This document shows positions 5,562 to 50,791 of a stretch of 64,000 nucleotides of DNA, piece after piece. The translations under genes were made by a program, and so were the position numbers. The notes under the pieces are model-generated. The model did not search any database. It saw nothing but the letters and a program-made list of their open reading frames with translations, and was not told the DNA's origin. The stretch covers positions 64,928 through 128,927 of the forward strand of contig CAKPIT010000003.1 of NCBI GenBank assembly GCA_934162445.1, in the 5' to 3' direction. Numbering within the stretch: position 1 is the stretch's first letter; each line of letters begins with the position of its first letter. The stretch comes from an uncultured Bacilli bacterium. GTDB lineage: Bacteria > Bacillota_I > Bacilli_A > RF39 > UBA660.

Positions 5562-6178
5562 AAGACCTATCCGTAACTAATAGAAAATATGCTATTAACA
5601 TGAAAGCAGATTTAACTTGTCCCGATATGAATGATGCTATTATGTATAATGACACTAAAACCAACATTAAAGGCATCAGAGCCATTTTGAAAACTGAAGA
5701 AGATTTTTTGTTACTAGATGATAGCATGCTTCGGATGGCTCATTATATTGCCTACGTTAATCGTGATAGAAAGTCACTTGACCAAATAGACCAATTAAAC
5801 TCACTAACCGATACTGAAAAAGAAGCCCGCATAAAAAACTACCTTAACTCTGAATATTTAAGACGTAACATGGTTTTTGACTTTGAAACTTATCAAGAAT
5901 TACTAGATCTTGATGCTTCTTTGTTAAACAAAAGCGACGAATCCTATCTTTTAGAAAGCCCCTATATTTTATATTCAATCAGCTACTTACAAACTATCTT
6001 TTACGAATACTACGAAACTAACAAAAAAGCTCATACCTATATTAATGGCATCCTAACGTCACTTGCCCATGAAAGCATCCACAATATTGATGATTTAATC
6101 GCTATTGAATCAACAAGAGAAGAATTTAATCACAAAAATAAAGCCAAGATTATTACTTTTAAAAAGAACTTAAAGTAA
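5552..6178 (+). CDS. Hypothetical protein (overlaps the lon stop by 10 nt)
   Basis: 208-aa ORF with no recognisable motif; it is translationally coupled to lon. Confidence 0.4.
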   Translation: MQLEDLSVTNRKYAINMKADLTCPDMNDAIMYNDTKTNIKGIRAILKTEEDFLLLDDSMLRMAHYIAYVNRDRKSLDQIDQLNSLTDTEKEARIKNYLNSEYLRRNMVFDFETYQELLDLDASLLNKSDESYLLESPYILYSISYLQTIFYEYYETNKKAHTYINGILTSLAHESIHNIDDLIAIESTREEFNHKNKAKIITFKKNLK

Positions 6179-6227
6179 TAATCTTTTTTTTAAGCCATAT
6201 ATTAAAAGTAAGGAAAGGAGAAAAAAT

Positions 6228-6968
6228 ATGCGACAAATAATATCTTTAGAAAAAGAAATCCTCTTTAAAACTATGATTGGCGATATTACAAGTATCTCTT
6301 TAGAACACACCCTTGATTTCATCAACAATAGTGAAATAGAAGGTGATTTAATCGTAAATGGTACTTATAAACTAACAGAAGCATCCACAATTGAAGAAAC
6401 CTTTGACTACAAAGTACCCGTTGAAATTATGCTAACAACCGCTCTAGAAGAGAAAAAACGAACCATCAACATCAATGACTTTACCTATAAAATTGTTAAT
6501 GAGGATACACTATTAATAAACGTTGATCTTTTAATTGAAGGCCTTGAAATAATTGAAATTAAAGATCAAGAAGAATCAAATAGAAATGATTCTAATGCTG
6601 AAATAGAAATACTTTCAACTAAAGAAGAGCAAGAAACTCTACCAAGTGCCAAGGAAATTAATGATACGATGTCAAAAGAAATTGAACAAGAAAACAAAGA
6701 ACAACCTCAAGAAGTTGAAAAACCAAAATCTAAAGAACAAAAAGAAGGGGAGAATAAAGTGATTGATTCAATTTTTACCGCCTTTAAAGACACCACTGAA
6801 ACTTATTCAACCTATTCAGTTTATACCCTAAGAGAAAATGATACCCTTGACGAAATCATTGCCAAATATAAAACAACTCGTGATGACTTACAATCATATA
6901 ATGATCTAGATAACCTAAAAATAGGTACTAAACTAATTATTCCTACATCCTTTACTGATGAAGAATAA
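6228..6968 (+). CDS. Hypothetical protein with C-terminal LysM domain
   Basis: The C-terminus YSVYTLRENDTLDEIIAKYKTTRDDLQSYNDLDNLKIGTKLIIP is a typical LysM; the middle is an acidic low-complexity linker; RBS AGGAAAGGAG. Confidence 0.5.
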   Translation: MRQIISLEKEILFKTMIGDITSISLEHTLDFINNSEIEGDLIVNGTYKLTEASTIEETFDYKVPVEIMLTTALEEKKRTININDFTYKIVNEDTLLINVDLLIEGLEIIEIKDQEESNRNDSNAEIEILSTKEEQETLPSAKEINDTMSKEIEQENKEQPQEVEKPKSKEQKEGENKVIDSIFTAFKDTTETYSTYSVYTLRENDTLDEIIAKYKTTRDDLQSYNDLDNLKIGTKLIIPTSFTDEE

Positions 6969-7836
6969 TATTACTAAATATACCTATTTAAATAAATTAA
7001 AAATTATAAGATATAGTAATGGTGAAAACCTAGTTATTAAAAAAAACTTAAATCATGATCTCACTAAAGTATATAAATATTTAACTGATCATGATTTTGA
7101 GTATTATCTAAAACCCCTAAAAATTACTAAAGATGAAGTATACTTTCCCTATTTACAAGAAATAGAATTAACCGCCGATGAAAAAGCCAAAAGACTCATT
7201 TACAATTTAAGTTACCTTCAAACCAAAACTACTATCTATCAAAGCATTGATAAAGATAAAATTCTTGAAGAATATAATACCTATCACGATCAAATAACAT
7301 CATTAGAAAAATATTATCATAATCTTCAAGACATGGTAGAAGAAAAAGTGTATATGATGCCTAGTGAATATTTATTCATAAGGAATGTTTCCTTAATCTA
7401 TAAAGCTTTAAATTACAGTAACATGCTACTAGATAAATGGTACAACCTAATAAAAGCCAAAAAAACAGAACGTTTAGTATACTGTCATGGTAAATGTCAA
7501 ATAGATCATTTTTTAGCCAATGACAATGGCTATTTTCTTAGTTTAGAAAATGCTCATATTGGTAAAGTATCAGAAGATTTTATCAATTTCTATAATCATA
7601 ACTATCAAAATACCGATATGCTTAGTAATTTTAAATATTATCAAAAAAAATATCCCTATTTAGAAGAAGAACTATTATATTTATATTTAAATTTAACTAT
7701 TCCTCCTAAAATAGATATTTATAAAAGTTCTCTAAATAAATGTATAGAATTAAATGATTTCTATGACAAACTAAAAATAACTAGCTATTTTGTCTTAAAT
7801 AATCAAAAGAAAAAGCAATACAATGAACAAAATTAA
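6958..7836 (+). CDS. Hypothetical protein, possibly a kinase-like (CotS/choline-kinase-like) fold
   Basis: 292 aa; the weak motif CHGKCQIDHFLANDNGYFLSLENAH is reminiscent of the HGD.H..N catalytic loop of APH/CotS-family kinases; otherwise no motif. Confidence 0.3.
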   Translation: MKNNITKYTYLNKLKIIRYSNGENLVIKKNLNHDLTKVYKYLTDHDFEYYLKPLKITKDEVYFPYLQEIELTADEKAKRLIYNLSYLQTKTTIYQSIDKDKILEEYNTYHDQITSLEKYYHNLQDMVEEKVYMMPSEYLFIRNVSLIYKALNYSNMLLDKWYNLIKAKKTERLVYCHGKCQIDHFLANDNGYFLSLENAHIGKVSEDFINFYNHNYQNTDMLSNFKYYQKKYPYLEEELLYLYLNLTIPPKIDIYKSSLNKCIELNDFYDKLKITSYFVLNNQKKKQYNEQN

Positions 7837-8118: not shown

Positions 8119-9024
8119 ATGCAAAAAATAAATACACTTATATCTAAAGATAATAAAAATATAAAATTAAAAAGTTACTATGGAAAAGCCTTAAGTAATA
8201 AAAACTTTAAAGATTTCGTGGATACGATCGACTTAAAAGATGAAGTTTTAATGAAATACACATCAGAAATAGAAGATTCTCTTATCGAAATAGAAAATTG
8301 TAAAACTTGTCCCGGCCTTAAAGAATGTCCCAATCTTATCAAAGGCCATGTTCTAACACCCACTAAACAGGATAAAGGTCTAGTATTTTCCTATCTTCCA
8401 TGTTCTAAATATCAAAAAGATCAAGAAAATTTTGCCTATTTAAAAAACGTTACCTGTTTCAATTTACCTAAAGAATTAAGTAAAGCTTCATTTAAAAATG
8501 CTTACCGTGATGATAATAAACGTTTACCTATATTTAAATACTTTAAAGATTTTATTGATAACTACCAACATAAAAAAGATTTAAAAGGTCTATACTTAAG
8601 TGGTTCTTTTGGTAGCGGTAAAACCTATTTAATAGCCGCCTTCTTTAATGAAATGGCTAAAAAAGGCGTTAATTCTTGTATGGTATACTATCCAGAACTA
8701 TTAAGAAGTTTAAAATCATCCTTTGGGAGCAATTATGAAGATAAATATGATTTTATTAAAAGTGTTCCCTTATTACTCCTAGATGATATTGGGGCTGAAA
8801 ATACCACCAGTTGGAGTAGGGATGAAGTCTTAGGACCTATTCTTCAGTACCGCATGGAAGAAGATCTTCCTACCTTTTTCACCTCCAATTTAAACATTGA
8901 TGAATTAGAAACTACTCTAAGCATCACTGGTAGCGGTATAGATAAAATAAAAGCGAAGCGAATAATAGAAAGAATTAAATATTTAACTACCCCTTTAGAA
9001 TTAATTAGTAAAAATAGGCGATAA
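8119..9024 (+). CDS. dnaI: Primosomal/helicase-loader protein DnaI (DnaC/IstB-like AAA+)
   Basis: N-terminal Cys cluster CKTCPGLKECPN...LPC (zinc-binding domain); Walker A GSFGSGKTYL; LLLDDIGAE Walker B; no transposase partner. Confidence 0.7.
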   Translation: MQKINTLISKDNKNIKLKSYYGKALSNKNFKDFVDTIDLKDEVLMKYTSEIEDSLIEIENCKTCPGLKECPNLIKGHVLTPTKQDKGLVFSYLPCSKYQKDQENFAYLKNVTCFNLPKELSKASFKNAYRDDNKRLPIFKYFKDFIDNYQHKKDLKGLYLSGSFGSGKTYLIAAFFNEMAKKGVNSCMVYYPELLRSLKSSFGSNYEDKYDFIKSVPLLLLDDIGAENTTSWSRDEVLGPILQYRMEEDLPTFFTSNLNIDELETTLSITGSGIDKIKAKRIIERIKYLTTPLELISKNRR

Positions 9025-9029
9025 TTGGC

Positions 9030-9995
9030 TTGGGAGAAATTGGATCAACAGCCGATGTAAAAATATTAGAACAATTTCTTCAAGAAGAAACAAGCTCTAA
9101 TATTATTGCACAGTTATCAAAGTCAATATATAAAATAAAAAACAGATATTTTAATACTCAAGGAAATTTTACCAGAAAATATATGGTAAATGAAAATGGT
9201 TTGATTGGTGATGATTCAGACAAATGGTACGCTGATGCATCAATATATAATTTGTTTTCGGAAGCAGAAGATCCAGAAAATATATGTTTTTCATTAATAT
9301 TTAATAGAGTTTTATCTAAAAATATAAAAATAAAAAATCCGATTGACTTAGCAACAGGTACTGGAAGAGCTGCAAAATATATACTAAACAATATATCATA
9401 CGATGGTAAATTATATGCAGTTGATTATAGTCAACAAATGTTAGATTATTTCGACAGAACAATAAGCAGACAAAAATATTACGTAAAAAACATAGAATTA
9501 GTTCATTCAAAAATTAAAGATTTTGAAATTCCACAAGAAGAAAAATCAACATTTATTATAAGTTCCTTTGGCTTCCCAAGCAAAATATCGGACAATGAAA
9601 GGTGCAAACAAGAATTGGAAAATGTGTACAATATGTTAGACGAGAACGGAATATTTGTTACATTGGGTTGGGATGAAACATTTAATGATGAGTTAAATGC
9701 AATGTGGTATAGATATGTCCCGGATAATATAAAAGCAGCCAATTTTGAAGAATGGAGAAAGATAAGAGAAAGTAGTATATCAAGTGCAAGGAATTGTAAT
9801 TTAACATGGTACAAACAAAATATACAAGTCCCACTATTATATGACACTCTAGAAGAAACGATTAATGTAATGGGCCATTTATTTGGTAGAGATGCTGCTT
9901 TAGAAGTCTTAAAGAGTAAAAGAACAATGTGGTGGATGTCAATGGGAATCACATGGGATGATAAAAAAAGTTTATCCAAAACATTAAAGAAATAG
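9030..9995 (+). CDS. Class I SAM-dependent methyltransferase
   Basis: Motif I-like IDLATGTGRAAKYIL followed by an acidic motif II, AVDYS; the TTG start has no RBS, so the true start may be the ATG at 9183. Confidence 0.5.
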   Translation: MGEIGSTADVKILEQFLQEETSSNIIAQLSKSIYKIKNRYFNTQGNFTRKYMVNENGLIGDDSDKWYADASIYNLFSEAEDPENICFSLIFNRVLSKNIKIKNPIDLATGTGRAAKYILNNISYDGKLYAVDYSQQMLDYFDRTISRQKYYVKNIELVHSKIKDFEIPQEEKSTFIISSFGFPSKISDNERCKQELENVYNMLDENGIFVTLGWDETFNDELNAMWYRYVPDNIKAANFEEWRKIRESSISSARNCNLTWYKQNIQVPLLYDTLEETINVMGHLFGRDAALEVLKSKRTMWWMSMGITWDDKKSLSKTLKK

Positions 9996-10004
9996 GAGCA
10001 AAAT

Positions 10005-10571
10005 ATGAAAGAAATAGAAATATTAGTAGAAGTATATGAAGAACTAGAAACCATCAAAAAGAAATTAGAAACATTTAACTATATAGATAGCAAAAATATT
10101 AAAGATGAATATTATTATGATCCTAAAAGAGATCTATTAAAACCAGATAATAAAAACCAACTTAGTCATTGTTTAAGATTAAGAAAAAATGATAATAATT
10201 ATTTTGTAACATATAAAGATGATATCTTTGATCACGGTAAATGGTTATATTCAAACGAATATGAAACAAAAATAGATTCAATTTCGGTTATGCAAGAAAT
10301 ATTTAAGAATCTCGGTTTAATAAAATTTATAGAACTTGACAATAAAAAAGAAGTATATAAATATCATAAATATGAAATTGTAATAGAAGATGTAAAGAAT
10401 TTAGGAATATTCTTAGAAGTTGAATATTGTACAGATAAAGATGTTGATGTAATAAAAGAAAAAGAACAAATTCAAAAATTTATAGATAAACTTAATTTAA
10501 ATGTATCAGAAGAACTTAACATGGGCAAGCCTGAATTATACATGAAAAAGCATAATATACAGATTAAATAA
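10005..10571 (+). CDS. CYTH-domain protein (CyaB-like triphosphate tunnel metalloenzyme)
   Basis: N-terminal EIEIL (the ExExK region), LRLRKNDNNYFVTYK and LEVEY acidic strands typical of CYTH/CyaB; RBS AGGAGC. Confidence 0.55.
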   Translation: MKEIEILVEVYEELETIKKKLETFNYIDSKNIKDEYYYDPKRDLLKPDNKNQLSHCLRLRKNDNNYFVTYKDDIFDHGKWLYSNEYETKIDSISVMQEIFKNLGLIKFIELDNKKEVYKYHKYEIVIEDVKNLGIFLEVEYCTDKDVDVIKEKEQIQKFIDKLNLNVSEELNMGKPELYMKKHNIQIK

Positions 10572-10587
10572 TTATAAAAAGTAGCTA

Positions 10588-10920
10588 CTATTTTGTAACT
10601 ACTTTTAATTTTTCTGAAATTTCCAAGCCATCTGCACAACCAACTGGTAATAAATAAATATAATAAGCCTTTAGTCTTGGCCTTATAAATTTTTCTGTTT
10701 TCATATTTCGATAAATAGCTAAGATTTTATCACTTTTATCAGTAACAATAATATCAAGTCTTTGACAATTAAAATAAGTATTAATCATTTTCTTTCTAGG
10801 ATAACATAACCCTTCTTTAATATTAGCAAGGTAAAATCTAAATCCTTTAATCCGTTTTTTAAACTTATTAACAACTTTAACTGTCACTTTTCCATTATTC
10901 AATATAATAACTTTTTCCAT
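10588..10920 (-). CDS. DUF192-domain protein
   Basis: 110 aa, one of only three minus-strand genes; MEKVIILNNGKVTVKV...LDIIVTDKSDKILAI...LLPVGCADGLEI resembles DUF192 (COG1430); flanked by hairpin terminators. Confidence 0.45.
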   Translation of the reverse strand: MEKVIILNNGKVTVKVVNKFKKRIKGFRFYLANIKEGLCYPRKKMINTYFNCQRLDIIVTDKSDKILAIYRNMKTEKFIRPRLKAYYIYLLPVGCADGLEISEKLKVVTK

Positions 10921-19885: not shown

Positions 19886-21667
19886 TTGATTTGTATGATA
19901 AATGATTTCAAAACTTTAAAATTAGAACCAGTAAAAGAACTAGATCAAGGTTTAAAAAATTTTCTTAATGATCTTGAGATGACTATTGAAACTGAAAAGA
20001 TAAATGCCATTAAGACTTTAACCAATCAGCTATTTAGTCACTATATTAATCTTATTGTAACTATTCAAGATAGCCTAACTAAAGAAGAACTTGCCACCTT
20101 TACGGCAAAAGAAGAAGAGTATGAACAAGCTATAACCAAGCTTAAAGAAAATGCCACCTCCCTAGAAACTATCAATAATCTTTATCAAGATATAGAAACA
20201 AGTTATAATGACTTAAAAACTTTAAGTACCAAAAAACTAGAAACCAATGCCATCTATAAAGAATTTAATGATTTAATTATGAAAATAAATGTTAATCTTG
20301 ATCTTTTAGCTAATATTTCTATACCCGATAATGAAGAAAAAGAAATAAAAGAGTTAATCACTAATTTTAATGATACCAAAGATAAAGAATTTTTAACACG
20401 TCTTTTAAATAAAACCCAAAATCTATTACAAGAAGAACCATCATCTAAAACTTCTTATCAAGTTTTTTCTCTTTTTACTGACATAACCCCTAAAATTAAA
20501 GATACTTATACTTTAATCCAAAATGATCTAACATATATTAAATACCACTTAATAGATAATAGTTTTTATTATGCTATTATTAAGCAAAAAGAAGATCTAG
20601 ATTCATTAATTAAAGAATTTAAACCTATAACTAATCTTATCCTAGATAAAGAACATATCATTAAAACTTGTGAAGAAATCATTAAAAACATTGAAATATA
20701 TTATAATATTAAAGAATATGTTACCTTTTTGATAGCTACCAAAAAAGAACAAGACTTCTTAAAATACCAATCTATTTTAACCGATTATGAATCAAAACTA
20801 AAAAGTCAATTTTCTTTTCTTCATGAACTTGCATTATTAGTTAATCATAAACCAAGTAAAATGTATCCTACTTTAGTCTATAATGGTGAACCATTTTCTA
20901 AAAGTACAAGTAATACTTTAACCGAAGATTCTCTTATTGCTAATATTTTTATGAACTATCAAGAAGATATTAATTTAGATACCAAAATGATTTTAACCCT
21001 TATTTATGACCATGATGTAGTAGATGATTTATATAATGCTAATTATAATGGCCACAAAAAAGAAATCAATAACTATACTAAAATTAGGAACTATTTAAAT
21101 CTAAGACTAAAAGAAATGGAAGAGTTGAAAACTTCTTCTCTAATAACAACCACTTTAAAAAAAGAGGATATATCCCTATATAAAGATGTCAATACCATAA
21201 TTGATATACAAATTGCTATTATTATTTGTGATAAAACATATAAAGAAGGGCAGGGCTTCTATGCTTTAGAAGACTATCTTAAATCAAACACCTTACAAAA
21301 ATTCACATCAAAGTATGGTTGCCGTAATCTTGTAAAAACTATTAACCGGCCAACTCTAATCAAACTCTTAGGAGAAAATATTTTAAAAAGATATCTTTTG
21401 GATAATCACAATCCGCAAATTACTTCGTTCCTAGATCAAACATTACTATCTAACAATTGTTCTCCTAATGATTTCGTTAACAAGTTAATAACTACTCCTG
21501 ATATTTTAAAACTAGCCATCTTTGACTTTAATTACAACTTTTTAGATAGTACTTCTGAAGATTCATTAACTGTCGTTAAAACAATTAAAAATACTGATCT
21601 TGCTAATGATAATTTAACCACCAGATGTATAAATCTCCTAATAAATATTAAAAAATATGATAAATAA
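19886..21667 (+). CDS. Hypothetical protein (large, helical/coiled-coil-like)
   Basis: 593 aa, no TM and no recognisable catalytic motif; followed by a hairpin (21724-21741) and a weak terminator (21774-21816). Confidence 0.4.
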   Translation: MICMINDFKTLKLEPVKELDQGLKNFLNDLEMTIETEKINAIKTLTNQLFSHYINLIVTIQDSLTKEELATFTAKEEEYEQAITKLKENATSLETINNLYQDIETSYNDLKTLSTKKLETNAIYKEFNDLIMKINVNLDLLANISIPDNEEKEIKELITNFNDTKDKEFLTRLLNKTQNLLQEEPSSKTSYQVFSLFTDITPKIKDTYTLIQNDLTYIKYHLIDNSFYYAIIKQKEDLDSLIKEFKPITNLILDKEHIIKTCEEIIKNIEIYYNIKEYVTFLIATKKEQDFLKYQSILTDYESKLKSQFSFLHELALLVNHKPSKMYPTLVYNGEPFSKSTSNTLTEDSLIANIFMNYQEDINLDTKMILTLIYDHDVVDDLYNANYNGHKKEINNYTKIRNYLNLRLKEMEELKTSSLITTTLKKEDISLYKDVNTIIDIQIAIIICDKTYKEGQGFYALEDYLKSNTLQKFTSKYGCRNLVKTINRPTLIKLLGENILKRYLLDNHNPQITSFLDQTLLSNNCSPNDFVNKLITTPDILKLAIFDFNYNFLDSTSEDSLTVVKTIKNTDLANDNLTTRCINLLINIKKYDK

Positions 21668-21880: not shown

Positions 21881-21908
21881 TTGACAATCGCAAATAATAT
21901 GATAAAAT
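21881..21908 (+). promoter_or_regulatory. Sigma-A-type promoter with extended -10 (TTGACA-16-TGaTAAAAT)
   Basis: TTGACA at 21881-21886, TG at 21900-21901, TAAAAT at 21903-21908; the small ORF RBS follows about 20 nt downstream. Confidence 0.5.
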
Positions 21909-22124: not shown

Positions 22125-23558
22125 TTGATTACATTACAAAATTTACTAAACAAAATAAAAGAATATAATTCAGAAGAAGTAAAAGTAGTAGAAAAAGCCT
22201 ACGAATATGCTAATGTTTTACATCAAGGTCAAATGAGACAAAGTGGCGAACCATATATAAGTCATCCTTTAAATGTAGCCTATATATTAGCAGAAATGCA
22301 CGCTGATAAAGATACAATATGCGCTGGCCTTTTACATGATACGTTAGAAGATACTAGTATTGCAAAAGAGGATATTGCTCATGAATTTAATCAAAATGTT
22401 GCCAATTTAGTAGATGGAGTAACAAAATTATCCAAGATGAATTTTTCATCTAAGCAGGATCAAAATTATGCTAATACAAGAAAGATAATAACTGGAATAA
22501 CAGATGATGTTAGAATAATCATCATCAAACTTGCTGATAGACTTCATAATATGAGAACATTAGGATTTAAATCTGAATTTAAACAAAAAGAAAATGCACT
22601 TGAAACAATGGAAATATTTGTTCCTCTTGCTTATTATATTGGAGCGTACAGAATTAAATCTGAATTGGAAGATTTATCTCTTCAATATTTAAAACCAGAT
22701 ACATATAAAAATATTGAAGAAAGAAAACTAAAATTAGAAGAATCAAGTAATGCGTGTTTAAATGAGATGTTTTATAAAATAAAAGCTTTATTAGATAATC
22801 AAAACATTCCAAATGAAATAAAAATAAGAACAAAAAACATTTATGGTATATACAAAAGATTAAGCGAAGGCCACAAATTATCTGATATACATGATTTATT
22901 ATCACTTAAAATAATGGTAGATGAAATAGCTAATTGCTATCTTACCCTAGGAATGATTCACAAAGAATATCATCCAATCAATGATAAGTTTAAAGATTAT
23001 ATTTGTAATCCCAAAACTAATATGTATCAAAGTTTACATACAACAGTATTTGGTCCAGATGATAGATTAGTTCAAACCCAGATAAGAACTTTTGCAATGG
23101 ATAGAGTAGCCTCATTTGGATTAACCGCATATTGGAATGAACAAAAAGGTAAAGCAAGAGATATAATGCAAGAAAACTTAAGACAAAAATTTCAGTTTTT
23201 TAAATCTTTAATAGAAATTAATTCCATGTTTGGAGATAATCAACAATTTGTAAAACAAGTTAAAAACGAATTATTTGCAGACAGGATATATGTTTATACT
23301 ACCAAAGGTGATGTTATTGAATTACCAAAGGGGTCCACGCCAATAGATTTTGCATATAAAATTCATACTGATATAGGTAATACAATGATTGGTGCATTTG
23401 TTAATGATGAATATGTACCAGTTGATTATATATTACAAAATAAAGACAGAGTAAAAGTTATTACAGATGATTATTCTTTTGGTCCAAGAGAAGAGTGGAT
23501 TGAAAAAACACAAACTAGTTTAGCAAAAAGAAAAATTAAAGAATTTAATAGAAAATAG
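22125..23558 (+). CDS. Truncated long-RSH: HD (p)ppGpp hydrolase + RelA/SpoT synthetase + TGS domain, lacking C-terminal ZFD/ACT domains
   Basis: TTG start 5 nt after GGGAGGTG; HD motif HPLNVAYILAEMH...LLHDTLEDT; synthetase motifs RTKNIYGIYKRL, DIHDLLSLKIMV, YQSLHTTV; TGS IYVYTTKGDVIELPKGSTPIDFAYKIHTDIGN; 477 aa versus 717 aa for the canonical Rel at 48207. Confidence 0.8.
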   Translation: MITLQNLLNKIKEYNSEEVKVVEKAYEYANVLHQGQMRQSGEPYISHPLNVAYILAEMHADKDTICAGLLHDTLEDTSIAKEDIAHEFNQNVANLVDGVTKLSKMNFSSKQDQNYANTRKIITGITDDVRIIIIKLADRLHNMRTLGFKSEFKQKENALETMEIFVPLAYYIGAYRIKSELEDLSLQYLKPDTYKNIEERKLKLEESSNACLNEMFYKIKALLDNQNIPNEIKIRTKNIYGIYKRLSEGHKLSDIHDLLSLKIMVDEIANCYLTLGMIHKEYHPINDKFKDYICNPKTNMYQSLHTTVFGPDDRLVQTQIRTFAMDRVASFGLTAYWNEQKGKARDIMQENLRQKFQFFKSLIEINSMFGDNQQFVKQVKNELFADRIYVYTTKGDVIELPKGSTPIDFAYKIHTDIGNTMIGAFVNDEYVPVDYILQNKDRVKVITDDYSFGPREEWIEKTQTSLAKRKIKEFNRK

Positions 23559-23580: not shown

Positions 23581-24834
23581 ATGAATATATACATTTATGA
23601 AAATATTAAAAAAAATATAGATGATTTAAAATTTGAAGTAGTAGAAACAAAAGGAAAAGGTCACCCTGATAATATTTGTGATACCTTAGCAGAAAAAATT
23701 TCCGCAAATTACTCGAAATATTGTTTAGAAAACTATGGTGTTATTTTACGACATATGATAGATAAACTTTCTATTTTAGGTGGCGGGTCAAAAGTTTATT
23801 TTGGTAAAGCACAAATTATATCTCCAATACGAATACTTGTTAACGGGCGATTTACAAATCGATATAAAGAAGAAAATATAGATTATATGAAAATTGTAGA
23901 GTATACAATTAAGAAATATTTTAAAGAGTTATTTCCACTGCTTGACTGTGAAAAATATTTAAAAATAATAGATAATACTCATCATAACGAAGGCCCGGGA
24001 GTTATTTATAACGACGACAACACCACTAACAATGATAGAAAAAAATTTTTTGAAGTTTCAAACGATAATGATATGCTAAATCATAATAATCAATTTAAAT
24101 GCAATGACACTTCAACAACAGTTAGTTATTATCCCATGAGTAAACTGGAACAAACTGTTTTAAAAATAGAACAAACTCTTAATTCTAATGAATATTCAAA
24201 AATGAATCCTTGGGTTGGTAGTGATATCAAGGTAATGGGAATTAGAAAAGACAATAAAATAGAAATCACTAGTTGTGTTCCACTAATATCAACATATGTA
24301 CTAAGTTTAGAAGATTACAAAAGCAAAATAAAAATAATAAAAAAAGATATTAGAGAAGTCGTAAAGTCTTTTTTTCCTGAAAATCCCATATTAATCTATC
24401 TAAATACTAGAGACAACTATGAAAAAAACGATTTATATTTAACAGCTATAGGAAGCGCAGTTGAAAGTGGCGATGAAGGTGCAGTTGGCCGTGGTAATCG
24501 CTCCAGAGGTGTTATTCCATTTTGTAGAAATTTTAGTATGGAAGCTCCATGTGGAAAAAATCCTGTTTATCATACAGGGAAATTATTTACAGCAATAGGT
24601 GATATAATAAGTAAGAAAATATATGATCAATATAATTTGGAGAATGTTGTATATTGTACTTCAAAAATGGGTGATAACATTAAAAATCCATGGAATATTA
24701 GTGTAGAGTTAAATGCTCCAATTACAGCCGACAATATAAAGAAAATTAATGAATTAATAGAAACAGAAATTAGTAATCATAGAGACGTTACTTATAAAAT
24801 AATATCTAACACAATAAAGTTAAATAGTTATTAA
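23581..24834 (+). CDS. Archaeal-type S-adenosylmethionine synthetase (MAT, PF01941-like)
   Basis: It aligns by eye along its length with M. jannaschii MAT: [19 protein letters not shown] vs [59 protein letters not shown] vs [80 protein letters not shown] vs [40 protein letters not shown]. Confidence 0.8.
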   Translation: [417 protein letters not shown]

Positions 24835-25889: not shown

Positions 25890-26564
25890 ATGAAATTGTT
25901 TTTATGTGGTGGGGGATCAGGAAAGCAAATAGAAAAAGCTTTAAATGAATTTTCTTTAATAATAGATAAATCAAAGCCCATATTATATGTTCCATTAGCA
26001 ATGGCTAAAGAAAAATATGATAGTTGTTATTTATGGTTTCAAGAAGAAATAAAAAAGATAAACATAGATAAATTTGAAATGGTTACATCAGCCCTTGAAT
26101 TATCTGAAAAAAATTTTCATGATTATAGCGCTCTTTTTATTGGTGGTGGCAATACTTATAAATTATTAGCAGAAATAAAACAATATGGCAATTATGAAAA
26201 AATAGTAAATTACTTAAATAACGATGGCCTTATTTTTGGTAGTAGTGCAGGGGCTATTATCTTTGGTAAAGATATAAACAGTTGCTTACTTGATGATGAA
26301 AATAATATAAATTTAAAAGATACAGTGGGCTTTAATTTATTAAATGATTATTCTATACTGTGTCATTTAACTAAAAACAACTTAGAAAAAAACTGTTCGT
26401 ATTTAAAAGAGTATTCTCAAACTACCAAAGTAATATATTTACCAGAAGAAGATGTTATTGAACTTGATAATGCTGGAACAAAAATTTTAGGTACTAAAAA
26501 TTATGTAGTATTTATTGCTGGTGAATACAGATGGCAAGATTGTGATAGTTTTAAAATATCTTAA
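25890..26564 (+). CDS. Peptidase S51 family (dipeptidase E / cyanophycinase-like, class I glutamine amidotransferase fold)
   Basis: FLCGGGSGK...ALFIGGGNTYKLL...LIFGSSAGAI contains the S51 GGN and SAG(A) nucleophile-elbow motifs. Confidence 0.65.
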   Translation: MKLFLCGGGSGKQIEKALNEFSLIIDKSKPILYVPLAMAKEKYDSCYLWFQEEIKKINIDKFEMVTSALELSEKNFHDYSALFIGGGNTYKLLAEIKQYGNYEKIVNYLNNDGLIFGSSAGAIIFGKDINSCLLDDENNINLKDTVGFNLLNDYSILCHLTKNNLEKNCSYLKEYSQTTKVIYLPEEDVIELDNAGTKILGTKNYVVFIAGEYRWQDCDSFKIS

Positions 26565-26688: not shown

Positions 26689-28002
26689 ATGATTAGTAAA
26701 CCTAAAGGAACTACAGATATAATCGGTTCTGATGCTAAGATTTGGAAATATGTTGAGAAAGTAATTGATTCTTTCATGGAAAAATATAATTATAACTATG
26801 CAAGAACCCCAATTTTTGAAAATAGTGAATTATTTCACCGGGGAATTGGTGATACAACCGATATTGTAACGAAAGAAACCTATGATTTTAAGGACCGTGG
26901 CGATCGTAATCTTACTTTAAGACCCGAAGGTACCGCTGGTATTGTCAGAAGCTTTATTGAAAACAAACTTTATGCTACTAGTAGTCTTCCTGTTAAACTT
27001 TATTATAATGGCACTATGTATCGTTATGAGCGTCCTCAAAAAGGAAGATATCGGGAATTAAGTCAATATGGAGTAGAGGTACTAGGTAGTTTTGATCCGA
27101 TGATTGATGCCGAAGTTATCTCTCTTGCCTATAATATTAACAAAGCTTTAGGCCTAGCTGACACTGTTATTCATATCAATAGTCTTGGTGATAATGAGTC
27201 ACGTGCTAATTACCGTGAAGCTTTAAAAGCTCATTTTAAACCGCATTTAGATGACTTATGTGATGATTGTAAAAACCGTTATGAGAAAAACCCTTTACGT
27301 CTTTTAGATTGCAAGGTTGATAGTAACAAAGACTATTTTAAAGATGCTCCAAGTATTCTTGATTATTTAAACGAAGAAAGCAAAAACTACTTTGATACGG
27401 TAATCTCTTACTTAGATATTTTAAAGGTTAACTATGTTATTGATGACAAAGTTGTTCGTGGTCTTGATTATTATAATCATATTGTTTTTGAACTTATGAC
27501 TGAGGATAATAACTTAGCCCTAGGTGGCGGGGGAAGATATGATCATTTAGTAGATCAATTAGACGGTCCTAAAACCCCATGCGTTGGTTATGCCGTGGGC
27601 CTTGATCGCTTAGTAGAAATATTAAAATCAAGAGATCTTATTCATCTAGATGATGCCGTTGAAATTTTTATCATGTATGTTAATGATGAAGAGAAATCAT
27701 ATGCCATCTATCTTAGCAATGAATTAAGAACTGCTGGTTTTAAAGTTGAAACTGAGTACATTAAACCAAGTTTAAAAAGTGAATTTAAACGGGCTGATCA
27801 CTTTAACAGTAAATACCTAATAATTTTAAACAGTACCGACTTAAATGAAGGCGTTGTTACCATCAAAAACAACAAAACTAAAGAAGAAGAAAAGATAATG
27901 CTTGAATATCTTATTTATTACTTTGATGAACATTTAGCTGATGAACTAGAAGAAGATGAATGCTGTAATCATCATGAAGAAGAGGAGAGTCACCATGAAT
28001 AA
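26689..28002 (+). CDS. hisS: Histidine--tRNA ligase
   Basis: Class II motifs; HisRS-specific RYERPQKGRYREL and GGGRYD; start at the ATG 8 nt after AAAGGAG. Confidence 0.95.
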   Translation: MISKPKGTTDIIGSDAKIWKYVEKVIDSFMEKYNYNYARTPIFENSELFHRGIGDTTDIVTKETYDFKDRGDRNLTLRPEGTAGIVRSFIENKLYATSSLPVKLYYNGTMYRYERPQKGRYRELSQYGVEVLGSFDPMIDAEVISLAYNINKALGLADTVIHINSLGDNESRANYREALKAHFKPHLDDLCDDCKNRYEKNPLRLLDCKVDSNKDYFKDAPSILDYLNEESKNYFDTVISYLDILKVNYVIDDKVVRGLDYYNHIVFELMTEDNNLALGGGGRYDHLVDQLDGPKTPCVGYAVGLDRLVEILKSRDLIHLDDAVEIFIMYVNDEEKSYAIYLSNELRTAGFKVETEYIKPSLKSEFKRADHFNSKYLIILNSTDLNEGVVTIKNNKTKEEEKIMLEYLIYYFDEHLADELEEDECCNHHEEEESHHE

Positions 28003-29314
28003 AATTTATTTTAAAGATTTAAGAAATTATATTGATAAAGAAATTGAACTTAAAGGATTCGTTGATAGTATTAGAAATCTTCAATGGGTTCAATTCCTAA
28101 TTTTAAAAGATAGTACCGGAAAAGTTCAAGTAACCATTGAAAAAAGTCCTGATGAAAATAAAGATATGGTTAATCTTGTTGAAAGCCTTACCTTAGAAAG
28201 TACAGTTACTATAAAAGGTATTTTAAAAGAAAACCCTAAAGTAAAATTAAATGGTTTAGAGTTCATTCCTCAAGAAATTGAAGTAACCAGTGAAAGTGCT
28301 AGTGAACTTCCTATTAATATTCATGACCTTAATGCTCAATTAATTGACCAACGTCTTGATTATCGTTTTCTTGATTTACGAAATGATTACAATGCGAATA
28401 TCTTTAAAATTCAAACTGAATTAGTTAACTCTATGCGTAAGCTTTTATTAGAAAAATCATTTACAGAAATTCATACTCCTAAACTAATAGGGGCAGCATC
28501 TGAAAGTGGATCTGAAGTATTTGAAGTAAAATATTTTGATCGTAAAGCCTATCTTGCCCAATCACCTCAATTTTATAAACAAATGGCTATTTGTGCAGGT
28601 TTTGATAAAGTCTTTGAAACTGGTCCTGTTTTTAGAGCTGAAAATTCTAACACCAACCGTCATACCACTGAATTTACTGGCTTTGATGTTGAATTTGCCT
28701 ATCTTGACTCAGTTAATGACGTTATGGATTTAGAAGAAGAATTACTAACTAACGCCTTAAAAGACATTCATGCTAAATACCATGATCTTATTAAAGAAAC
28801 ATACAATACTGAAGTTGTGGTTCCTACTGAAAAATTCCCACGCATTACCTTAAGTGACTTATACAAAGTTTTAGAAGAACGTTATAACTACAAAATTTCT
28901 GATGATATGAAAAATGATACTAATAGTGAAGTTGAAAAGTTAGCTTACCAATACGCTATGGATGAATATAATAGTGAATTTATCTTTATTACTGATTTTC
29001 CAACTCTTAAAAGACCATTCTATCATCACCGTAATGCTAAAGGTTTAACCGAAAGTTATGACTTAATCTGGAAAGGAATTGAAATAACTACAGGAGCTGT
29101 AAGAGAACATCGCTATCAAATCTTAAAAGATCAAGCTACGGAAAATGGTCTAACTAAAGATGTTGAGTTCTATTTAGAATTCTTTAAATACGGTTGTCCA
29201 CCACATGGTGGTTTTGGTCTTGGCGTTGACCGTTTAATCATGCTTCTTTTAGATTTAAAAGGTATTAAAGAATCTATGTTCCTCTTTAGAGGACCAAACC
29301 GACTTGAACCATAA
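27995..29314 (+). CDS. aspS: Aspartate--tRNA ligase, archaeal/eukaryotic-type (type 2, short form without GAD insertion)
   Basis: FRAENSNTNRHTTEFTGFDVEFAY matches the eukaryotic/archaeal AspRS motif 2 (EFTGLD) rather than AsnRS (EFWM); C-terminal FRGPNRLEP; the hisS-aspS synteny is conserved; 439 aa; the ATG overlaps the hisS stop. Confidence 0.7.
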   Translation: MNKIYFKDLRNYIDKEIELKGFVDSIRNLQWVQFLILKDSTGKVQVTIEKSPDENKDMVNLVESLTLESTVTIKGILKENPKVKLNGLEFIPQEIEVTSESASELPINIHDLNAQLIDQRLDYRFLDLRNDYNANIFKIQTELVNSMRKLLLEKSFTEIHTPKLIGAASESGSEVFEVKYFDRKAYLAQSPQFYKQMAICAGFDKVFETGPVFRAENSNTNRHTTEFTGFDVEFAYLDSVNDVMDLEEELLTNALKDIHAKYHDLIKETYNTEVVVPTEKFPRITLSDLYKVLEERYNYKISDDMKNDTNSEVEKLAYQYAMDEYNSEFIFITDFPTLKRPFYHHRNAKGLTESYDLIWKGIEITTGAVREHRYQILKDQATENGLTKDVEFYLEFFKYGCPPHGGFGLGVDRLIMLLLDLKGIKESMFLFRGPNRLEP

Positions 29315-34813: not shown

Positions 34814-34868
34814 TCTTTACATAATAACACATTTTGTGTTATTATTTTTATAAGGTAGGGTGTTATGT

Positions 34869-36716
34869 ATGAAACAATCTATGAAGGAATCTATAAAGCA
34901 ATTTTTTAAAAAATTAAATGAGACCAACATCTCAAAAAAGTATGTTATTATCGTTTTAGGAATCAGTATGTTAATGGTTTGTAGTTATTTTTCTTATGCC
35001 ATGTTTACCGTTTCTAAAGAAAAACAAAATGCTATTAAAATTGTTACTGGTAATTTAACATATAAACTAACAGTTAATGGTACAGAAACAACAAGTATCA
35101 GTGTACCGGCTAAAACTACTAGCGAATATACGGTTATTTTAACTAATCCTAATAGCAGAAAAGCCCGGTTTAACTTTTATTATATTGAAACTACAGATGT
35201 TAAAAATTATCTTAATGTTGGCTATGTTACTAAATCAGGATCAAGTACGCTTCCAAGTGCCACTGGTACTAATATAAATCAAAATGCTAGTAATACTTAC
35301 ACCCTAAAAGTAACTAATAGTAGTTCATCTAGTAAAACTCTTAAATTAGGAGTAGAAGTAGGTCTTGATTATAATAATTTGGCTCTTCCTACCTCATCTT
35401 CTCTTGGTGGAACGGCTAAAATTTTTAGTGAATATACAAATGGTACTACCACGATTGCTGAATATCTTCTTGCTGATAGTTCCAATAGTCTTGATACGAG
35501 TGACAGCGATCAAACCTTTATTACTGGTTCAAGCCCTAATAACTATATTTGGTACAGTGGTAAGATGTGGAAGGCTGTATCTATAAATACCTTCGACAAC
35601 AGTGTTAAAGCAGTAACCGAAAACAGTATTTCCGTAATATCATATAACGAATCAGATGGTATTTTTGATGGCAGTTATATGGATAGTTGGTTAAATGATG
35701 AAACTGTTGATGGTTTCTTAGGTAACTTACGGGAACCAGAAAAATTTTTAAAATCTGATAGTGAATGGAATGCTACTGCTACCACTTCAACTAGTAAACC
35801 AGATGAGAGTAATGTAGTAACAAGAGTTGTTGGCTCCTTAAATTTATATGAATATACCATGAGTTATAAAAATACAACTAGCAGTAAAGGCTATTTAATG
35901 AACGGCAAGTCTTGGTGGTTAATAACTCCTGCTTACAATAATATTGTTAACTATGTTGATATCGATGGTCGTATCGGTACTGATTCTCCTAGTATTGGTT
36001 ATGGTATAAGACCTGCCGTTAATTTTGATGCAAGTATTCAAATTGCCAGTGGTAGTGGTACATCATCTAATCCATATCGCCTAGAAGGTGATAATGATAG
36101 TGCTGTAAGTGATGAATTAAGTGCAAGGTATAGTGGTGAATATGTTGCATTTGGTAAGGGTGACAACAATTTATACCGTATTGTCAGTCATGAAGTAGAA
36201 GGAACAACCAAAATAGTCAGTGTTAAACCTATCATTGATGAATCATCATCAGCTTATAAAGATCAATATGGTAATTACATGTATCAAACTGATATTGGTA
36301 TTGGTAATTTCTTAAATAATGATTTCCTATCTAACTATTTAGAAGATTATCAACCGAGCTTATTAGTAGAGAATGCCGAGTGGTATTTTGGAACAGTTGC
36401 TAGTGGCGGTAGTTATAAATTAGCCAAATATCAAGGTATAGATGACGATACCCTAACTAATGATACTACTACTGCTAGAGTTGGTCTATTACGTTATGGT
36501 GAATTATTTGCAACCACAGGTAGTGATGATAACAATTTTGTTACTATTACTCCAATAAACACAACAACCATGCACTACATTGGTAATTGCGATTGGGATC
36601 TGGAAATATCAACCACTGATGGTGCTGAAATCAAACCAGCCATGTTTATCATGGAAGGAATATATATTGTAGAAGGTAGTGGTACTAAAACTGATCCATT
36701 CATAATTAATGGTTAA
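34869..36716 (+). CDS. Hypothetical large surface protein with N-terminal membrane anchor, Ser/Thr/Asn-rich
   Basis: N-terminal TM YVIIVLGISMLMVCSYFSY followed by a ~580-aa Thr/Ser/Gly-rich ectodomain; no known motif. Confidence 0.4.
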   Translation: MKQSMKESIKQFFKKLNETNISKKYVIIVLGISMLMVCSYFSYAMFTVSKEKQNAIKIVTGNLTYKLTVNGTETTSISVPAKTTSEYTVILTNPNSRKARFNFYYIETTDVKNYLNVGYVTKSGSSTLPSATGTNINQNASNTYTLKVTNSSSSSKTLKLGVEVGLDYNNLALPTSSSLGGTAKIFSEYTNGTTTIAEYLLADSSNSLDTSDSDQTFITGSSPNNYIWYSGKMWKAVSINTFDNSVKAVTENSISVISYNESDGIFDGSYMDSWLNDETVDGFLGNLREPEKFLKSDSEWNATATTSTSKPDESNVVTRVVGSLNLYEYTMSYKNTTSSKGYLMNGKSWWLITPAYNNIVNYVDIDGRIGTDSPSIGYGIRPAVNFDASIQIASGSGTSSNPYRLEGDNDSAVSDELSARYSGEYVAFGKGDNNLYRIVSHEVEGTTKIVSVKPIIDESSSAYKDQYGNYMYQTDIGIGNFLNNDFLSNYLEDYQPSLLVENAEWYFGTVASGGSYKLAKYQGIDDDTLTNDTTTARVGLLRYGELFATTGSDDNNFVTITPINTTTMHYIGNCDWDLEISTTDGAEIKPAMFIMEGIYIVEGSGTKTDPFIING

Positions 36717-50360: not shown

Positions 50361-50791
50361 GAGTTTTAGTTCAAAGATGTAAAAAGGCCAGTTGCCTTGT
50401 TGATAGAAAAACTATTTCTTCTATTAATGAAGGCTTAGTCCTTTTCGTTGGTTTTACGGATACAGATACTTTTGATACCATTACCAAAATGGTTACCAAA
50501 ATTATTAATCTACGGATTTTTCCAGATAGTGATGGGATAATGAATTTATCAATCCATGATTTAAATCTAAGTATTTTATCAATTTCCCAATTCACGTTAT
50601 ATGCTGATACTAAAAAAGGAAATCGTCCTAGTTATCTAAAAGCTTTAAAGAGTGATAAAGCCAAAGAATTATATGATTTTTTCAATCAAGAATTAAAGAA
50701 ACATTTAAAAACCGAAACAGGGGTGTTTGGCGCCGATATGGAAATAGAACTCATTAATATGGGTCCAACTACTATTTTATTGGAGAGGTAA
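50357..50791 (+). CDS. dtd: D-aminoacyl-tRNA deacylase
   Basis: MRVLVQRCKKASCLV...GLVLFVGF and the C-terminal SQFTLYAD motif; overlaps the rel stop. Confidence 0.9.
   Translation: MRVLVQRCKKASCLVDRKTISSINEGLVLFVGFTDTDTFDTITKMVTKIINLRIFPDSDGIMNLSIHDLNLSILSISQFTLYADTKKGNRPSYLKALKSDKAKELYDFFNQELKKHLKTETGVFGADMEIELINMGPTTILLER

Follow-up and report, generated by a model that had tools for sequence, protein, structure and literature searches.

A gene for an archaeal-type S-adenosylmethionine (SAM) synthetase, or methionine adenosyltransferase (MAT), is found in a 64 kb stretch of contig CAKPIT010000003.1 from an uncultured Bacilli bacterium; the whole of this stretch is referred to as the window. 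The open reading frame (ORF) starts with ATG and encodes 417 amino acid residues. It belongs to a module of about 3 kb in which the MAT gene is followed, starting 10 nt 3′ of its end, by a gene for a protein related to the catalytic part of alanyl-tRNA synthetase (the AlaRS-like protein) and then by a gene for a serine hydrolase of the S51 family. An earlier note on this DNA had described the ORF and a series of archaeal-type motifs within it, and the ORF and every motif were recovered as described. The naming of the gene is not in itself new; NCBI records from metagenome-assembled genomes already call such proteins 'methionine adenosyltransferase'. The module is apparently previously undescribed, and searches of the available literature library, both for the module and for archaeal-type MATs in bacteria, found nothing relevant.

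Table 1 Positions in the window of the module genes, the MAT lid and other features of the locus.
Feature	Position	Strand	Basis
Archaeal-type (PF01941) MAT, module-borne subfamily, subgroup A	23581..24834	+	Pfam, PDB matches, Foldseek, core motifs
Subfamily-specific active-site lid of the MAT, residues ~132-171 (including RKKFFEV)	23974..24093	+	Profile against archaeal MATs; conservation
AlaRS-like protein, 329 aa	24845..25834	+	AlphaFold2 model, Foldseek, family profile
S51-family serine hydrolase, 224 aa; peptidase E/cyanophycinase relative; glutamine-amidotransferase-like fold	25890..26564	+	PF03575
Truncated RelA/SpoT paralogue, 477 aa; HD, synthetase and TGS domains; no C-terminal RIS/ACT	22125..23558	+	Pfam, NCBIfam
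Full-length RelA, 717 aa, then dtd; canonical secDF-relA-dtd order	48207-50791		
Best sigma-70-like promoter match, TTGACA-16-TAAAAT with extended TG	21881..21908	+	Consensus scan, 11/12 positions

The MAT and its active-site lid

The window MAT matches the Pfam family AdoMet_Synthase, PF01941 (E = 3.1e-98; 329.7 bits against a cut-off of 27), the match spanning residues 2–409 of the protein and positions 2–393 of the 395-position profile. Its sequence matches in the PDB are the six solved archaeal MATs only, with E values of about 1e-60 to 1e-62. An AlphaFold2 model of the protein (pLDDT 80) was compared with known structures by Foldseek and superposes on the archaeal MATs 7p82, 7p83, 4l4q, 6s81 and 4hpv with TM scores of 0.79–0.83 at 30–32% identity, against TM scores of about 0.5 at 12–14% identity for the bacterial and eukaryal MATs. 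The bacterial MetK families and domain models of Pfam and NCBIfam gave no match to the window MAT. The protein has the general type of reaction in common with bacterial MetK (TIGR01034), and its three-domain fold is distantly related to that of MetK, but the two do not match at the level of sequence. These results agree with the earlier note, which had assigned the gene to the archaeal type and not to MetK and had named best matches to MetK, or loss of the GHPD or GRGN motif, as grounds for giving the assignment up; MetK is unmatched and both motifs are kept. On the NCBIfam models for archaeal MATs (PRK04439 equivalogs), the protein scores 267–305 bits, under the curated cut-offs of 435–577; it is a divergent member of the archaeal-type family. 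The MATs from modules of the Patescibacteria (candidate phyla radiation, CPR) are likewise under these cut-offs, at 272–336 bits.

The likeness to the archaeal enzymes of Methanocaldococcus jannaschii, Sulfolobus solfataricus, Thermococcus kodakarensis and Pyrococcus furiosus (7P83, 4HPV, 4L4Q, 6S81) extends to the fold (TM score 0.83), to the order of segments, the protein being collinear throughout, and to the active-site motifs. In the window MAT these are GHPDNICD (residues 27–34), DIKVMG (215–220) and the GDxGxVGRGNR...GKNPVxHxGK block (within 297–334). Across 30 aligned module MATs the conserved elements are GHPD, D215-I-K-V-M-G, N-T-R-D, Y286, E-S-G-D298-E-G-x-V-G-R-G-N-R and GKNPVxHxGK, with H28, D215, Y286, D298/E299, G303–R307 and G325–K334 kept in every sequence. 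The catalytic, adenosine-binding and triphosphate-binding roles of these motifs are known from the T. kodakarensis and M. jannaschii MATs (PMC3853416, PMC9298006), and the set shared with them includes the GHPD His, the ribose-binding Asp residues, the adenine-stacking Tyr and the GRGNR and GKNPVxHxGK triphosphate motifs. From these residues, the window MAT is on balance expected to be catalytically competent and to convert ATP and a methionine-type substrate into SAM or a closely similar adenosyl-sulfonium compound, an expectation that goes with the module reading given below and at the same strength.

Besides the low identity, the module MATs differ from the archaeal enzymes in the loop that closes the active site. 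The 30 module MATs were aligned with the M. jannaschii MAT, and a profile of 12 of them was searched against the six solved archaeal MATs. The profile aligns to all six in two blocks, skipping profile positions ~132–166; here a lid of about 35–40 residues stands in place of the archaeal gating loop of about 16 residues and is some 20 residues longer. Lid residues N132, P139, G140, R153, F156/F157, E158 and D164 are conserved in the MATs of both the Bacilli and the CPR, and the region is disordered in the AlphaFold2 model of the window MAT. In the gating loop of the M. jannaschii and T. kodakarensis enzymes an Asp binds the N6 amino group of adenine and a Leu contacts the methionine side chain (PMC9298006, PMC3853416). 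The loop with these residues (Asp144 and Leu145 in T. kodakarensis) has no counterpart in the window MAT, where the longer lid is unalignable. The earlier note had taken an Asn-rich stretch, residues 143–170, for an insertion interrupting the central domain. This stretch lies inside the lid, which is a conserved, family-wide replacement of the gating loop and not a lineage-specific insert of low complexity; the richness in Asn reflects only the AT-rich genome. By these sequence comparisons, the lid-bearing MATs are a distinct subfamily, defined by membership of the three-gene module.

A second difference concerns the methionine site. In subgroup A, made up of the gut Bacilli and the CPR loci with a convergent MAT gene, the motif L-H-H-N-x-D of the archaeal MATs reads L-R-H-M-(I/V)-D-K (L-R57-H58-M59-I-D-K in the window MAT), while subgroup B, from the CPR, keeps the archaeal H-H-N. 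His62, Asn64 and Asn161 are the ligands of the methionine carboxylate in the T. kodakarensis MAT (PMC3853416). The M. jannaschii residues H58 and N60 correspond to R57 and M59 in the window MAT, and the equivalent of T. kodakarensis Asn161 is kept as N175. One interpretation is that the true substrate of the MAT is a methionine derivative, such as a methionyl amide or conjugate produced by the AlaRS-like enzyme, whose adenosylation would give a tethered sulfonium, or that SAM is itself the amino acid activated by the AlaRS-like enzyme. The replaced and lengthened lid over the methionine moiety would suit such a substrate, as would the Arg and Met that take the place of His62 and Asn64 in subgroup A (PMC3853416). 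The argument is purely inferential, however, and it is weakened by subgroup B, which has the same lid yet the H-H-N ligands, by the ability that Arg57 could still have to bind the carboxylate, and by the promiscuity of archaeal MATs without any such changes (PMC9298006). A substrate other than free methionine is regarded as unlikely.

The AlaRS-like protein and the S51 hydrolase

The AlaRS-like protein is labelled 'hypothetical' in every database source, and the protein from the window matches no Pfam (including PF01411) or NCBIfam family. In its AlphaFold2 model (pLDDT 90), the top PDB matches found by Foldseek are all AlaRS (E 1e-11 to 1e-8, TMq 0.6–0.7), followed by GlyQ, the alpha subunit of glycyl-tRNA synthetase, and a family profile of 44 divergent members finds the AlaRS of archaea (6e-17) and of E. 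coli (1e-14). The protein consists of the class II catalytic domain and the first helices of the tRNA-recognition domain, without the editing and C-terminal domains, so that the architecture of a full AlaRS, with complete tRNA-recognition, editing and C-Ala domains, is absent from its 329 residues. A canonical AlaRS is encoded on the same contig as the AlaRS-like gene in a Patescibacteria locus (L025); the AlaRS-like protein is therefore not the housekeeping AlaRS.

The class II core, including the motif 2 Arg, the D-x-G-x-G-x-E-R motif and the AlaRS fold, is present. Among the 44 divergent members R67, F82, D171 and R178 are invariant and W129, G149, G173 and E177 are nearly so, and the conserved positions align to the motif 2 Arg (R67), W170, D235-x-G237 and the motif 3 Arg (R178) of AlaRS. 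In AlaRS the Asp of D-x-G-x-G-x-E-R holds the alpha-amino group of the amino acid, and its equivalent in the AlaRS-like protein is D171. As the motif 2 Arg, F82, D171 and the motif 3 Arg are invariant throughout the family, the chemistry of amino-acid adenylation has probably been retained. Another residue, D150, sits at a position in the pocket that is occupied by Asn in bacterial AlaRS and by Thr in archaeal AlaRS; an acidic residue here would suit a cationic or polar side chain and is a point in favour of SAM or a methionine conjugate as a substrate.

An exhaustive profile search found 406 clusters of AlaRS-like proteins (50% identity, E ≤ 1e-3), of which only about eight are the short form of the gut Bacilli. 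Most are of 365–420 residues, with an N-terminal extension that aligns to the N-terminus of archaeal AlaRS. One protein (P0390, 674 aa) begins with a region that bears a zinc-ribbon-like CxxC...CxxxxC motif of the kind seen at the N-terminus of archaeal AlaRS, and it ends in an extra domain of about 280 residues without a Pfam match. Other lone proteins annotated as 'alanine--tRNA ligase-related' resemble the module protein in being free-standing AlaRS catalytic folds of about 280–310 residues, but they are only 21–28% identical to it and have no MAT or S51 neighbour. Many viral contigs in IMG/VR (L027–L052, at about 10001–10800; some of the contigs are 100–600 kb) encode a protein of about 270–290 residues whose identity is 21–28% both to the AlaRS-like protein and to the N-terminal part of E. 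coli AlaRS, and these proteins appear to be a separate, free-standing AlaRS/GlyQ-like family of large phages. A lone 'alanine--tRNA ligase-related protein' was also found on 76 Rhizobium plasmids, at about 22% identity over 91% of the AlaRS-like query; in Rhizobium indigoferae (L148, NZ_CP140638.1, 6896–7831) the gene lies between toxin–antitoxin genes and an ABC transporter and is unrelated to the module.

The third protein matches PF03575 (E = 4e-22; 79.3 bits against a cut-off of 23.9). In alignments with peptidase E (PepE) and Lmo0363, its G-S-S119-A-G nucleophile elbow and its H159 coincide with the catalytic Ser and His, two members of the Ser-His-Glu triad, and the protein scores under the NCBIfam cut-offs for PepE and for cyanophycinase. 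The AlaRS-like and S51 proteins also occur as a natural single-chain fusion (P0365, 568 aa), in which the S51 domain occupies the place where the editing domain of AlaRS would be.

This position of the S51 domain is one of several observations that could connect the pair to tRNA. The AlaRS-like enzyme might aminoacylate a tRNA, or might transfer an aminoacyl group from, for example, Ser-tRNA, with the S51 hydrolase acting in trans-editing or release and SAM serving to modify the tRNA or the product. The protein retains the helices with which the tRNA-recognition domain begins, and basic residues in them are conserved (PSNxxxGYRxRxFSKK). In AlaRS, though, a beta-barrel subdomain helps to read the G3:U70 pair of tRNA(Ala); this subdomain is absent from the AlaRS-like model, which is all helical after residue 200. 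A precedent exists in the ascamycin proteins AcmF, AcmD and AcmE, where a truncated AlaRS-like protein is likewise paired with a hydrolase: AcmF, which has aminoacylation and tRNA-recognition domains only, aminoacylates adenosine sulfamate from Ala-tRNA, and the hydrolase AcmE removes the aminoacyl group (PMC12945691). Most of the residues that are central to binding ATP and activating alanine are missing from AcmF (PMC12945691), whereas the module family keeps them, R67, D171 and R178 among them. The module also has no sulfamate chemistry and no second, full AlaRS, and it comes from the CPR and gut Bacilli whereas AcmF comes from Streptomyces. Together with the neighbouring genes described below, these differences make a role on tRNA very unlikely.

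Conservation of the module and coexistence with MetK

Conservation of the gene order was assessed by searching an AlaRS-like alignment against 185,579 reference genomes, which gave 22 loci, and against metagenomes, which gave 80 more. All 22 of the reference-genome loci carry the trio, three of them being from Patescibacteria at 30–42% identity. Linkage was counted over 101–102 non-redundant AlaRS-like loci. The S51 gene is immediately 3′ of the AlaRS-like gene in 91–92 of these, with a median gap of −4 nt and overlapping ORFs in 61/91. The MAT gene is adjacent in 74–84 of the 101–102 loci, the figure depending on the counting method, and most of the others end at a contig edge. When counted by ORF clustering, the MAT gene is immediately upstream on the same strand in 58 loci and two genes downstream in convergent orientation in 23. 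The flanking genes vary from locus to locus, and no other gene family reaches beyond 20 loci; one relative, whose MAT is 71% identical, has the whole trio amid entirely different flanking genes. The pairwise identity matrices of the three proteins are correlated (r = 0.88–0.94, 57 complete loci).

The loci come from gut Bacilli and Patescibacteria, at 28–45% protein identity, with source labels that include Candidatus Shapirobacteria, Paceibacterota and 'Patescibacteria group'. For the window itself, identical or near-identical copies are found in human-gut metagenomes, and relatives are labelled in the databases as Bacilli bacterium, Candidatus Aphodocola, Mycoplasma sp. CAG:776 and uncultured Tenericutes. 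The window has a GC content of 24–33% with nearly all genes on one strand and also encodes Lon, DnaG, threonyl-tRNA synthetase, RecD2, SecDF, full-length RelA followed by dtd, and AddAB-like helicases. From these genes, the human-gut copies and the labels of relatives, the host is taken to be a small-genome, uncultured lineage of gut Bacilli with the standard genetic code. The earlier note was right to place an archaeal-type MAT in a low-GC bacterium, in whose relatives relA, dtd, secDF and peptidoglycan genes are also found. It had also taken the gene to be horizontally acquired; acquisition directly from archaea is not supported: the closest relatives outside the Bacilli are the MATs of Patescibacteria modules (40–55% identity), against 30–32% for the archaeal enzymes, and recent transfer was rejected on composition, with unremarkable GC content and skew and no compositional break at the MAT locus. 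It seems on the whole that the module has been inherited and transferred as a unit among the Patescibacteria and this one lineage of gut Bacilli, a conclusion that forms part of the joint reading below.

Other settings for the module were considered and rejected. Archaeal (DPANN) hosts were suggested by a single 'Pacearchaeota' label: the MAT of one locus (L121, Ga0315298_1001835; 4837–7542 and 8580–9821) clusters at at least 90% identity with NCN99294.1 and OIO41609.1, recorded under 'Candidatus Pacearchaeota archaeon'. The L121 contig is bacterial, since SecA is encoded there, and the two records are probably mis-binned CPR contigs. A role in anti-phage defence was rejected when PADLOC gave no match for the MAT, the AlaRS-like protein or the S51 hydrolase. 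Carriage by phages or plasmids was likewise rejected; the MAT is absent from phage records, and the viral and Rhizobium plasmid matches belong to the other lone AlaRS-like families described above.

The earlier note had left two alternatives, that the MAT replaces MetK or that it is a dedicated supplier for its neighbours. As it had stated, the window contains no metK, none being found by tblastn with either the E. coli MetK or the MetK of a relative. One relative (L060) belongs to the same Bacilli clade and has a module MAT 70% identical to that of the window, with a MetK gene 2 kb 5′ of the module (5649–6671). This MetK has 340 residues, carries the motifs GHPDK, GAGDNG and GGGAFSGKD, matches PF00438, PF02772 and PF02773 and scores 322 bits on TIGR01034 against a cut-off of 309, thereby serving as a positive control for the MetK test. 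It is a member of an 803-member cluster that NCBI names methionine adenosyltransferase. The protein is unusually short (340 residues compared with about 380–400) and 40% identical to E. coli MetK. The arrangement recurs in two independent assemblies of the same abundant species (L142 and L143) and in six similar places. As this species keeps MetK and the module MAT side by side, simple replacement of MetK is not a general explanation, and a specialised role for the MAT is favoured. Of the two alternatives, dedicated supply thus gains, with the MAT linked to the AlaRS-like/S51 pair in some 80–90 loci in two phyla, and simple replacement loses.

The best explanation of the locus is therefore that the MAT is dedicated to the conserved MAT/AlaRS-like/S51 module and is not a stray substitute for MetK; a rough probability of 0.55 is attached to this reading. 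Its chief competitor is that the MAT is the main or only SAM synthetase of these bacteria, having displaced MetK, and that adjacency to the pair reflects co-transfer or co-regulation. The lack of metK in the window fits with this, as do the very strong conservation of the MAT with its intact catalytic core, the small streamlined genomes of the hosts, the 23 loci in which the MAT gene is convergent to the pair, and the reliance of archaea on a PF01941 enzyme as their sole MAT (PMC3853416). The module also tends to lie among translation genes: hisS and aspS in the window, serS in 19–20 loci, and trpS in two (L001 and L060). However, besides the canonical MetK of L060, L142 and L143, neutral synteny does not account for adjacency that persists at 28–45% identity in two phyla with all of the other flanks changed, and the rebuilt lid, the altered methionine-carboxylate ligands of subgroup A (R57, M59) and the scores under the NCBIfam equivalog cut-offs are not what a housekeeping enzyme would lead one to expect. 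A housekeeping role alone is on this evidence somewhat unlikely.

Neighbouring genes and a proposed pathway

The genes that accompany the module differ between its host lineages. CPR subgroup B operons are tightly packed and add myo-inositol-phosphate synthase, inositol monophosphatase, a family 4 glycosyltransferase (GT4), radical SAM enzymes and methyltransferases, and a PIG-L deacetylase is found at one locus only (L108). In some Bacilli loci the additional genes are for a HAD phosphatase, a radical SAM enzyme and a GNAT acetyltransferase. None of these accessory genes lies beside the module of the window, and those for inositol enzymes and the glycosyltransferase are missing throughout its clade. 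A radical-SAM-like or methyltransferase-like neighbour is present in only about 10/56 well-flanked loci, and the proposal that the MAT is kept merely to feed adjacent enzymes of these kinds was rejected on this count. The constancy of the MAT is for this reason better explained if the AlaRS-like/S51 pair uses its product directly, or if the MAT has an unseen role; that the MAT is constant in the module and SAM-consuming tailoring enzymes are not is also a point for the altered substrate considered above. In seven CPR loci (among L087–L093, L095 and L121) a 322-residue phosphotransferase of the APH family (PF01636) is encoded directly 5′ of the MAT. PF01636 also contains methylthioribose kinase and homoserine kinase II, and this neighbour could hint at salvage of SAM by-products.

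The gene serS adjoins the module in 19–20 loci of both phyla, in varying positions and orientations, and tRNA-Ser genes lie near it in three loci (L019, L074 and L099), both of which would be in keeping with a function on tRNA. Against that, no tRNA gene is consistently linked, which also disposes of a dedicated tRNA gene, and the adjacent seryl-tRNA synthetases are ordinary bacterial housekeeping types. Co-transfer of seryl-tRNA synthetase with the module is not supported, the adjacent enzyme in the Bacilli clade being of the ordinary bacterial type.

In the window, the truncated RelA paralogue ends 22 nt 5′ of the MAT gene, with which it is probably co-transcribed. The same paralogue is directly 5′ of the MAT in L006, L008, L010, L013, L014, L055 and L057; it is directly upstream of the module in 6–9 loci including the window and is an accessory neighbour, frequent but not universal. 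A CPR locus (L026) has an HD-only relative of it near the module. The promoter match precedes the string of relA paralogue, MAT, AlaRS-like and S51 genes, and is weak evidence, promoter-like sites being no commoner in the window than in shuffled sequence. No terminator-like site was found between the four genes. Rfam at gathering thresholds found no riboswitch or T-box in the window and seven related loci, and control of this kind was rejected, as at E ≤ 1 over 19.5–27 kb the only match was a chance one to a frameshift element. A second archaeal-type enzyme of the window is encoded by aspS (27956–29314), 3′ of hisS. It is the short, non-discriminating aspartate--tRNA(Asn) ligase of archaeal type, with a score of 471 bits on NF003483 (cut-off 353); the longest aspS ORF shares 47 nt with the end of hisS, so that the gene probably starts further downstream. 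Two ORFs (19886–21667, 593 aa, and 34860–36716, 618 aa) match no Pfam family. The first is just 5′ of the relA-paralogue/MAT string, and homologues of it were not found beside the module at other loci.

For the dedicated module, the following scheme is proposed. The MAT would supply SAM locally. The AlaRS-like enzyme would probably adenylate an alpha-amino acid and ligate it to an acceptor other than tRNA, in the manner of MshC, a proposal made because it retains both the arginines by which class II enzymes bind ATP and the Asp holding the alpha-amino group; Ser, Ala or another small polar amino acid might be the one activated, and Met or SAM is conceivable too. The S51 hydrolase would make or break an amide or ester bond in the same pathway, and the longer MAT lid may serve to accommodate a bulkier substrate or a partner protein. 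A more ambitious and tentative version, possible but less probable than the dedicated module as such, is that the trio constitutes a core pathway, so far undescribed, of ultra-small bacteria of the CPR and of gut Bacilli with small genomes, the synthetase-derived ligase and its hydrolase acting directly on SAM or a methionine conjugate. Its product might be a new mycothiol-like cofactor or an aminoacyl-adenosyl compound, in other words a SAM-derived or an aminoacyl-aminosugar(-inositol) metabolite, with the lid fitted to the substrate or to a partner.

The comparison with mycothiol is an analogy and not a claim of membership. In mycothiol synthesis MshC, a paralogue of cysteinyl-tRNA synthetase, is an ATP-dependent amino acid:aminosugar ligase that acts with the amidase MshB/Mca, a GT4 glycosyltransferase, inositol-phosphate synthase with a phosphatase, and a GNAT acetyltransferase. 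The module similarly has a truncated synthetase paralogue with activation residues beside a predicted amide hydrolase, and parallels are seen in the inositol enzymes, GT4 and PIG-L of the CPR operons and in the HAD phosphatase and GNAT of some Bacilli. The differences are that MshC is class I and related to cysteinyl-tRNA synthetase whereas the module protein is class II and AlaRS-like, and that the module hydrolase is of family S51 and not PIG-L; nor do we know of a dedicated MAT in mycothiol synthesis. The defining set for mycothiol or bacillithiol, a MshC/BshC ligase related to cysteinyl-tRNA synthetase with PIG-L and a MshA/BshA GT4, is absent from the module, and none of these genes lies beside the module of the window. 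The module glycosyltransferase was considered as an orthologue of MshA and rejected, having no specific similarity.

Several observations weigh against the dedicated module and the pathway built on it. Coexistence with MetK is seen in one species only (L060, L142, L143). In the 23 convergent loci the MAT is a neighbour and not an operon member, and a few loci break the pattern, L085 and L086 having no S51 gene and L106 having the AlaRS-like gene alone. The MAT is the most conserved of the trio (71% mean identity in the Bacilli clade against 53% and 58%), which would fit an essential housekeeping enzyme too. At about 10/56 loci, the provision of SAM to neighbouring SAM-dependent enzymes cannot be the whole story. 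What is observed is which families the three proteins belong to, that their catalytic residues are conserved, that the genes are linked and that MetK and a canonical AlaRS occur alongside them; we infer the flow of SAM to the AlaRS-like and S51 proteins, as we do the ligase chemistry and the product. The likeness to mycothiol synthesis is one of enzyme classes, the glycosyltransferase not being specifically MshA-like.

Finding PF01941 in a bacterial genome should not be taken as a sign of MetK replacement. If the module reading is correct, the archaeal-type MATs of bacteria would be a lid-modified subfamily serving a three-enzyme pathway and not scattered replacements of MetK, and some 300–400 'hypothetical' clusters of AlaRS-derived proteins would gain a testable role as amino-acid ligases acting with an S51 hydrolase. 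The module is compact, at 3 kb, and easily expressed, and its product could be sought by metabolomics. The CPR and uncultured gut Bacilli would then share a horizontally exchanged metabolic module.

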